A stretch of DNA of 63,966 nucleotides, the filler included, from a bacterium (GTDB lineage Bacteria; UBA9089; CG2-30-40-21; SBAY01), in NCBI GenBank assembly GCA_040757115.1. It is 7 parts of 7 records of this genome, joined end to end, with 100 filler letters (N's around TTAATTAATTAA, not from the genome) between each part and the next. Parts side by side here need not be neighbours in the genome. Positions count along the whole stretch, not along the records: positions 1 to 29,334 come from JBFLYA010000023.1; 6 more parts are not named here. The stretch is one strand, 5' to 3'. This document shows, in pieces, positions 1,576-1,791 of the stretch (position 1 is the stretch's first letter; the number at the start of each line of letters is the position of its first letter). The notes under the pieces were generated by a model. It did not search any database. It was not told where the DNA came from and was given only the letters and a program-made list of their open reading frames with translations. The position numbers were made by a program, and so were the translations under genes.

Positions 1576-1791
1576 GTAACTGTTCACCGCAGAGGCACAG
1601 AGACGCAGAGAAAAAATTAAAATTTATGGACGAGGATGGATTAACAAATCTGGCTTGCCTGCTGAACATTCGGCAAGCAGGTCATAAGTATTTCAATGGC
1701 TGCACCAATAATCTTTTCTGTTATCTGATTTATTTCCATATCTTCTCTGTTCCTCTGCGTCTCTGCGGTAAAGGACTACCTGAACGGTTAC
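1576..1791. mobile_element. Family-C IS66-type MITE carrying a deleted GxxExxY gene remnant
   Basis: TIRs GTAACTGTTCA / TGAACGGTTAC; minus strand reads MEINQITEKIIGAAIEI...LVHKF*. Confidence 0.7.

Follow-up and report, generated by a model that had tools for sequence, protein, structure and literature searches.

Internally deleted GxxExxY gene cassettes as the probable cargo of IS66-type miniature transposons in a bacterial genome

The element at positions 1576-1791 is probably a MITE of the IS66 family (single-ORF ISBst12 type) whose interior is an internally deleted word-armed cassette, that is, a small gene set between inverted tandem 7-8-mers. Its end repeats, GTAACCGTTCAG, would be cut and joined by a DDE transposase supplied in trans, with duplication of 8 bp of AT-rich target, and its interior would be the remains of such a cassette and not transposase debris. 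The gene of the full-length form is predicted to encode an intact-looking PD-(D/E)XK nuclease of the GxxExxY family. Given that the small gene lies inside the full-length copies, the full form is regarded as a passenger-carrying mini-transposon (mobile insertion cassette) and the hollow forms as its MITEs. Hollowing would proceed by loss of the centre until bare arm hairpins of 33-75 bp are left, and the hollow forms may spread both by transposition and by recombination with resident full copies, the latter suggested by one orthologous site.

Results

Elements of the window

The window, the whole stretch of 63,966 nucleotides that was analysed, belongs to a genome of 4.32 Mb in 462 contigs with 36.8% G+C (G000). 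Its positions 1-29334 are contig C145 and the remainder consists of other short contigs joined by runs of N, so that the elements at 57808 and 60235 lie on different contigs. The features are collected in Table 1; orthologous sites were compared with a genome of the same genus (G001).

Table 1. Elements in the window and their parts (strand "." where no direction is assigned)
Feature	Position	Strand	Remarks
Family-C MITE, hollowed GxxExxY unit	1576..1791	-	alignment to both unit ends
End repeats of MITE 1576-1791	1576-1586, 1780-1791		
Octamer tracts of MITE 1576-1791	~1588-1611, ~1745-1768		
N-terminal remnant ORF of MITE 1576-1791	starts 1739, reading downwards	-	
Second-end-family MITE (GGTGGTGTCT...AGACACCACC) with hollowed four-helix-bundle cassette	2519..2861	-	AAATATC/AAAATGC tracts
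Fused four-helix-bundle remnant ORF in MITE 2519-2861	2639-2752	-	
GTAACTATTCAG-type MITE	4276..4502	.	nested pairs of differing tract words, no coding remnant
GTAAC-type MITE, CACAGAG-type arms	6100..6341	.	exact 8-bp target duplication CTCCTGAA
Family-C MITE	9241..9474	+	exact 8-bp target duplication CTGAAATG
Cluster-0 bare-arm MITE	12184..12419	.	other window copies 16158-16394, 25512-25748, 54124-54360, 58037-58273
Family-C MITE, hollowed GxxExxY unit	23348..23653	+	
Family-C MITE, other contig	57808..58016	+	matches unit positions 1-66, 417-472
Family-C MITE, other contig	60235..60532	-	matches unit positions 1-107, 373-395, 393-472

All five family-C elements are bounded by the pattern GTAA[CTG][CTA][GA][TC]T[CG]A and its complement. 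The copy at 1576-1791 starts with GTAACTGTTCA and ends with CTGAACGGTTAC, and tracts of three octamers lie just inside both ends, formed of CGCAGAGN at one and of the complementary word at the other. In the preliminary description, made from the sequence of the window alone, these were CGCAGAG/CACAGAG tracts; their inversion holds, and the strict period of 7 gives way to the octamer returned by Tandem Repeats Finder. The minus strand encodes the remnant peptide MEINQITEKIIGAAIEI..., which is too short for Pfam, and the family was assigned via DNA alignment. This copy has no target duplication (flanks CGGTTTTC and ATTATCCT) and is also present in G001, where C84:199-2495 aligns with window 217-2517 at 98% and ungapped.

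The full-length unit and its hollowing

Four copies of a full-length unit of 459-472 bp occur in G000 (C25:10206-10677, C178:12091-12562, C34:8601-9059 and C460:8094-8552), each in the order end repeat, (CGCAGAGN)x3, ATG, GxxExxY ORF, stop, inverted tract, end repeat. The ORF matches PF13366 with up to 157 bits; it is open in C460 and C34 and has in-frame TAG codons in C178 and C25, and an exact target duplication is found at none of the four. Against the C25 unit, the copy at 1576-1791 aligns over unit positions 1-107 at 98% and 414-472 at 95%. The other four copies also match both unit ends, those at 57808 and 60235 with C-terminal remnants containing NFN, which bears out the description of all five as keeping one or both ends of a GxxExxY gene.

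Across the genome, single-linkage clustering of 406 pairs of ends at most 800 bp apart gave 114 clusters. Family C is cluster 1 (n=61, median pairwise identity 87%, exact duplication in 21/61), and GxxExxY coding DNA is matched by every one of its members. Among all 406 elements, GxxExxY coding remnants of at least 30 nt were detected by DNA match in 95, four-helix-bundle remnants in 14, and either in 108. Family C also has a graded series of derivatives of 75, 69, 66, 59, 56, 45 and 33 bp, ending as bare arms or ends, and the direction in this family is therefore from gene-bearing through hollow to bare.

One orthologous pair, with identical flanks on both sides, captures a step of this series: the C34 unit is full and open in G000, and its counterpart at G001:C27 lacks 167 nt, comprising the start codon and about 50 codons. 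The junction in G001:C27, AGAGAAA|AAAGGA, is that of a dispersed hollow class ('51-117') present in both genomes. The G001:C27 copy carries the site-specific bases of C34 downstream but the base typical of the dispersed class beside the junction, which suggests that a resident full copy may have recombined with an ectopic hollow one at this single site. At the C460 unit, the G001 contigs are short and not collinear.

A second family of ends, GGTGGTGTCT...AGACACCACC (74 left and 73 right ends, 32 pairs, exact 8-bp duplication in 16/32), carries a hollow four-helix-bundle cassette in its forms of 343-356 bp, the element at 2519-2861 among them, and bare GGAGAT arms in a form of 200 bp. The element at 2519-2861 has no target duplication. 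In its ORF at 2639-2752 (MQNYKSNFKEE|VTGFLKELEEFGNIFASSILTLKGKR*), codons 1-9 of a 123-aa four-helix-bundle ORF, G000:C126, are joined in frame to the final 27 codons of that ORF; at the DNA level the 5' part is 77% and the 3' part 99% identical to it, and the earlier reading of this stretch as the fused start and end of such a gene is confirmed. Bare-arm cargos had likewise been described, and they are exemplified by cluster 0 (n=65, median pairwise identity 99.2%, exact duplication in 30/63, and in 3/5 of the window copies), which lacks any coding remnant and shares its AAGGAGAT arms with the C256/C437-type GxxExxY cassette. By their alignments to the full unit and to the C126 ORF, hollow elements are recognisable as internal-deletion derivatives of gene-bearing units.

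Two further kinds of ends surround GxxExxY genes: CGACCTGTGAAATAGG around those of the C256 type (6 pairs, 8-bp duplication in 4/6) and ACTCGATRTTCAAGTTTT around that of the C408 type (3 pairs, 3-bp duplication in 3/3). Seven of the eight aligned G001 copies of the ACTCGATRTTCAAGTTTT type have the same internal deletion, and L125 is hollowed at another 5' breakpoint. The duplication is thus 8 bp for three types of end and 3 bp for the fourth. One type of cassette is found in several shuttles and one shuttle holds several cassettes. This mixing would be explained if MITEs often nested in the AT-rich centres of other MITEs, as one does with the duplication GAAATTTG; a cassette-specific preference for palindrome centres may also be considered.

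Ends, target duplications and transposase

The TIR motif was found at 861 left and 885 right ends in G000, forming 404 pairs at most 700 bp apart with a sharp mode at 200-250 bp; ends were located by a loose regular expression and paired with the nearest neighbour, by which nested or adjacent elements are sometimes mis-paired. When 399 ends of each side were put into a position matrix, they proved to share the core GTAAC[CT][GA]TTCA. An exact 8-bp target duplication flanks 132 of 402 elements, as against a mean of 0.6 and a maximum of 3 in 200 shuffled pairings, and duplications of 2-6 or 9 bp gave no signal for the GTAAC-type elements, the target of which is A-rich and then T-rich. The site of 6100-6341, which has CTCCTGAA on both sides in G000, is uninterrupted in G001:C65 with CCCCTGAA present once. 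The 13-mer GTAACCGTTCAGG has 390 occurrences in G000 and 432 in G001; four other relatives have 137, 106, 64 and 51, and in the other 15 of the 21 genomes searched the count is 0-8 (reversed-pattern control, 0-1).

No transposase lies inside the elements (33-472 bp), the only ORF families within them being GxxExxY or four-helix-bundle. At G000:C198:3061-4623, with GTAACCGTTCAGG at both ends, there are pieces of DUF6444 and DDE_Tnp_IS66 in three frames, so that this is a decayed copy; an intact cognate transposase was not found in assembled G000, where this copy and contig-end fragments are all that was recovered. A relative has an intact transposase of 476 aa (G007:C299), in an element 1505 bp long with ends GTAACCGTTCA, and this protein shares 40% identity with the C198 copy over 450 aa; a second intact single-ORF element, at G008:C86, is 1737 bp long with a 541-aa ORF and ends GTAACTACTCAGG. 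GTAA ends with an 8-bp duplication are taken here to mark the ISBst12 group of the IS66 family (ISfinder family table). By end sequence, by the 8-bp duplication and by a transposase with matching ends, the main ends are assignable to the IS66/ISBst12 type. ISDge4 of Deinococcus geothermalis, a member of the ISBst12 group, is described with the TIR GTAACTGCTCAGCA, one transposase and an 8-bp direct repeat (PMC12898284).

A longer segment between GTAAC-type ends was also seen, 1.9 kb at G000:C444:4176-6117, with an exact 8-bp duplication AAAAAATC and a cargo of a 343-aa YhgA/Rpn-like 'Transposase_31' gene (PF04754, 159 bits) and nested MITEs.

Arms of the intact genes

Arms were scored as the best local alignment between the 130 nt upstream of a gene and the reverse complement of the 130 nt downstream, with 581 genes of G000 of at least 250 codons as control (99th percentile 16.2). 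Above this percentile are 14/20 GxxExxY genes, those below being C211, C62 and four 5'-truncated copies, and 13/17 four-helix-bundle genes, one further gene being too near a contig end for scoring. In 15 other genomes of the phylum, judged by the G000 threshold and with one locus left out for the same reason, 19/27 GxxExxY genes exceed the 99th percentile and 25/27 the 95th. The check that the preliminary description had proposed, that intact genes be flanked by inverted repeats, thus came out in its favour for most of them. The arm word varies by cassette and is matched between both arms (CGCAGAG, CACGGAG, CGCAAAG, GGAGAT, GTAGGAA, GCAGAGG, GGGACTC, GTGTCGG, TAGTTGA). The periodicity of the flanks was rejected as a discriminator because short-period tracts abound in the flanks of the control genes of G000 as well (95th percentile of the controls, 22 of 28).

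With the end cores removed, the interiors of 295 of the 406 elements match the 90-nt flank of an intact gene over at least 24 nt at 85% or more (196 GxxExxY flanks, 86 four-helix-bundle flanks, 13 both; some of these flanks may contain a neighbouring MITE), against 0/406 shuffled interiors and 23/406 random genomic windows. A GTAAC-type end, with at most one mismatch and on either side, is present at only 7/27 loci of the relatives, compared with 4.5% of control windows, and most cassettes therefore exist without such ends. Going by these sequence matches, the arms appear to belong to the genes and not to the transposon.

The two small proteins

The PDDEXK_3 profile (PF13366) has 67 matches in G000, about 20 of them near full length, and G21, E24, Y27, D64, E74 and K76 are invariant in 20/20 aligned proteins. 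dN/dS is 0.04-0.11 in 9 pairs, copies inside transposon ends included; five pairs with C334 were excluded, the C334 row being one codon out of register. The predicted fold (pLDDT 95.9) has only weak resemblance to its nearest solved folds, Hjc (2wiw_A, E 7e-3, TM 0.49), Cas4 and lambda-type exonucleases: Foldseek gave no solved relative at E <= 0.001, phmmer gave 0 hits, and a profile search of solved structures returned only Cas4 4ic1 at a non-significant E of 0.71. PF13366 is classed as 'Unknown' in a PD-(D/E)XK survey (PMC3424549). PF05635 (23S_rRNA_IVP) has 26 matches in G000 (C126 ORF, 66.4 bits), and the only structural match of the four-helix-bundle protein is the uncharacterised PDB entry 2rld_A (E 5.7e-10); the IVS protein is itself called functionally uncharacterised (PMC11270868).

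Cassettes without transposon ends

A TAA stop on one side and, on the other, the 11-nt spacer that precedes the next ATG exactly bound the four-helix-bundle cassette of C226, the site of which is empty in the relative G003. The C26:3710 cassette occurs in G001 but not in G003, which has about 20 unrelated bases there, and a target duplication is lacking in both of these comparisons. The comparison of filled and empty sites that had been proposed covered these cassettes, which show no duplication, and the MITE at 6100-6341. Targeting of cassettes to hairpin apices was considered and is unsupported, the two empty sites, the 11-nt spacer and the stretch of about 20 nt, having no evident hairpin by eye.

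At four intergenic sites, related genomes hold differing word-armed elements. Between yceD and rpmF, with flanks 97-98% identical in G000 and G001, there is a four-helix-bundle cassette with GTAGTCA arms in G000, about 25 TTACCAG units with inverted ends in G001 and other sequence in G003. At the C68 site, GTAGAGA arms and a gene in G000 correspond to bare CACAGAG arms in G001; at the C26 site, the gap measures 9, 92, 535 and 1513 nt across four relatives; and a tRNA-adjacent site has TTAGAGA arms with a gene in G000, bare TATAGGAC in G004, TGGTAAT in G003 and a degenerate form in G005. Within the window, the intergenic stretch 3909-4502 is wholly different in content in G001, although the flanks are 99% identical. 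The G001 sequence at that place was seen to consist of a bare GATAGTT hairpin and a 3' fragment of the GxxExxY unit.

A CRISPR array at G000:C356:5006-7183 (37-nt repeat ending ...GACCTGATGAATAAGGGATTGCGAC, period about 74 nt) has inserts in the final two 'spacer' positions: a four-helix-bundle cassette whose arms are GGGACTC occupies the first, and those arms alone, without a gene, the second. Each of these two inserts is followed by a 5'-shortened repeat. '23S rRNA IVP' is listed among CRISPR-array-associated proteins (PMC10910872).

Discussion

Mobility of the amplified elements

The reading of 1576-1791 as an IS66-type MITE with a deleted cassette is built on the anatomy of the elements, their derivation from gene-bearing units, the target duplications, one empty site and a transposase of matching type. 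Mobilisation in trans by an IS66-type transposase would account for these, with the small genes as passengers. In the preliminary description, the inverted tandem oligomers were the limits of mobile units with the small genes as coding cores. The boundaries of the amplified units proved instead to be the outer TIRs, with duplications of 8 bp (three types) or 3 bp. The derivation from gene cassettes is upheld, since the intact genes are mostly flanked by arms and the remnants align to the two families; a need for the small gene in cis is not, since gene-less copies reach 61-65 per family, all at separate insertion sites. Multiplication is accordingly attributed to a borrowed DDE transposase acting on the outer ends, not to the tandem oligomers and probably not to the small proteins. 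Nevertheless, there are observations that the preferred reading does not accommodate easily. Four families of end repeats have central cassettes, which simple chance capture does not explain; the flagged copy has no duplication and is fixed in both members of the genus; none of the four full units has an exact target duplication; the cognate transposase is recovered from G000 only in decayed or fragmentary form; and the strong purifying selection on GxxExxY implies that the ORF does something, possibly for the element.

This raises the possibility that the arm-bounded unit is itself mobile, with GxxExxY or the four-helix-bundle protein as a mobility enzyme that also moves hollow copies in trans. 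Most intact genes in G000 and in the relatives are indeed arm-flanked, E24, D64, E74 and K76 are invariant in 20/20 under the low dN/dS of 0.04-0.11, the best predicted fold matches, weak as they are (E 7e-3, TM 0.49), are to Hjc and Cas4, inverted arms would on extrusion form a four-way junction, and end-less cassettes are inserted without target duplication. However, this is unlikely: the amplified copies end at DDE-type TIRs with duplications and not at the arms, and the arm word varies among cassettes while the protein is conserved. Furthermore, the same kind of arm surrounds the non-enzymatic four-helix-bundle family, and its presence on two unrelated proteins argues against either being an arm-specific mobility enzyme. 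It is also very unlikely that the end-less cassettes are moved by a hairpin-recognising single-strand transposase of the REPIN-RAYT or IS200/IS605 kind, with carriage in MITEs secondary. G000 has seven matches to Y1_Tnp (PF01797; IS200/IS605- or RAYT-type; for example C119:1846-2208 and C430:13423-13755), the elements have a hairpin anatomy and both empty-site comparisons lack a duplication, all of which would suit such an enzyme, yet none of these Y1 matches was connected with a cassette, and arm words of such diversity do not suit a single sequence-specific enzyme. On C430, three copies of the CRISPR-repeat core stand at most 200 nt from one of the Y1_Tnp matches.

Possible roles of the arms

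A tentative alternative, possible but not favoured, is that the arms act in RNA: they would pair in the transcript and RNase III would cut the stem, as in the 23S intervening sequences (IVSs) that bear an ORF, with the consequence that the cassette is looped out and its presence between coupled genes, or within a MITE, costs little. The arms would then be uninformative about DNA mobility. The precedent is the IVS in helix 45 of Coxiella burnetii, in which GACAGAT heptamers are described upstream of a four-helix-bundle ORF and a terminal stem of 28 bp is cut by RNase III (PMC4990558). The exact fit of one cassette into the interval from a stop codon to the 11-nt spacer of the following gene would agree with this. 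In 20/31 units, with 1 tie, it is the sense transcript that forms the more stable duplex of arms (mean difference -3.5 kcal/mol, Wilcoxon p 0.008, the units being paralogues and non-independent), a bias that is modest. The purine-rich-first polarity found in 31/31 units here is reversed, by eye, in at least 5/27 relatives, and hairpins without genes persist and multiply, which the RNA-level alternative does not lead one to expect.

A doubtful but more far-reaching reading is that word-armed cassettes would be an undescribed class of selfish modules, moved or exchanged in a hairpin-dependent manner without duplication, with GxxExxY as a junction- or hairpin-cutting nuclease and the bare hairpins as their corpses. 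If this were true, their landing sites would be gene junctions, tRNA ends, the end of a CRISPR array and the palindromic centres of MITEs, the MITE ends of at least four unrelated families would serve as amplifiers, and the bare 'heptamer hairpins' scattered through numerous bacterial genomes would be what such cassettes leave behind.

Relation to known systems

Mobile insertion cassettes, such as MIC231 of Bacillus cereus with its IS231 ends, have IS-type ends and a passenger gene, no transposase and a presumed mobilisation in trans. The 459-472-bp GxxExxY units fit this description, differing in that the passenger is a hairpin-armed cassette that decays into MITEs via central deletion. With insertion sequences of the ISBst12 group (e.g. 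ISDge4), which encode a single-ORF DDE transposase in their autonomous form, the elements share ends beginning GTAAC..TCAG and an 8-bp duplication; in contrast, they have no internal transposase, their interior is a small-gene cassette or its remains, and they are present in hundreds of copies in several cargo families. In REPIN-RAYT systems, numerous hairpin repeats without genes are associated with a small enzyme gene and moved in trans. The likeness lies in many gene-less hairpin repeats tied to such a gene, whereas the amplified elements here have DDE-type ends and target duplications, and none of the Y1 matches was connected with them.

The Coxiella IVS shares with the cassettes its PF05635 ORF, the upstream tandem heptamers and the complementary termini. 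None of the loci studied here is an insertion in an rRNA helix, which marks a 23S IVS; they are between protein genes, beside a tRNA, at the end of a CRISPR array and inside MITEs, and here the same arms also surround GxxExxY genes. Abundant intergenic tandem heptamers have been reported as GGGNATC from Nostoc and from Xanthomonas, in the latter of which they are transcribed (PMC4692102), and as TAACTGA in Beggiatoaceae (PMC4679880), their origin being left unexplained in the text of these reports that deals with them. As far as that text goes, they are tied neither to small genes nor to transposon ends, whereas here the tracts are paired in inverse orientation and can be traced to gene cassettes. 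As an IS66-family MITE or a mobile insertion cassette, the element is of a known kind; cassettes of this sort as transposon cargo, packaged in several shuttles, were not found described in the literature searched on GxxExxY/PF13366, the IVS protein and IS66 MITEs.

In G000, hundreds of repeat hairpins can be linked to two small gene families. Cassettes are found in it intact and under purifying selection, packaged within four kinds of transposon ends, at all stages of hollowing as far as bare hairpins, and at sites that differ among relatives. This is an unusually complete record of a life cycle, and decayed cassettes are therefore suggested as an origin for many intergenic short-period hairpins. 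Two questions are thereby separated: what copies the elements, for which a borrowed DDE transposase is proposed, and what role the arms and the small proteins have.

Other repeats in the window

Repeat families D1 and I13-I25 of the window were rejected as biology, being the separators of the contig joins. Such a separator has 12 letters flanked by 44 N on either side; one stands at window 29335-29434, and five more follow at spacings of about 5.9 kb. A 285-bp unit with AAGTAGA and TCGGGAC tracts is present in two tandem copies of 98% identity at 7162-7745, with a third, partial copy at 9094-9232, and at 30407-30528, within the ORF 30235-30999, a 42-nt unit is repeated 2.9 times with 92% identity.
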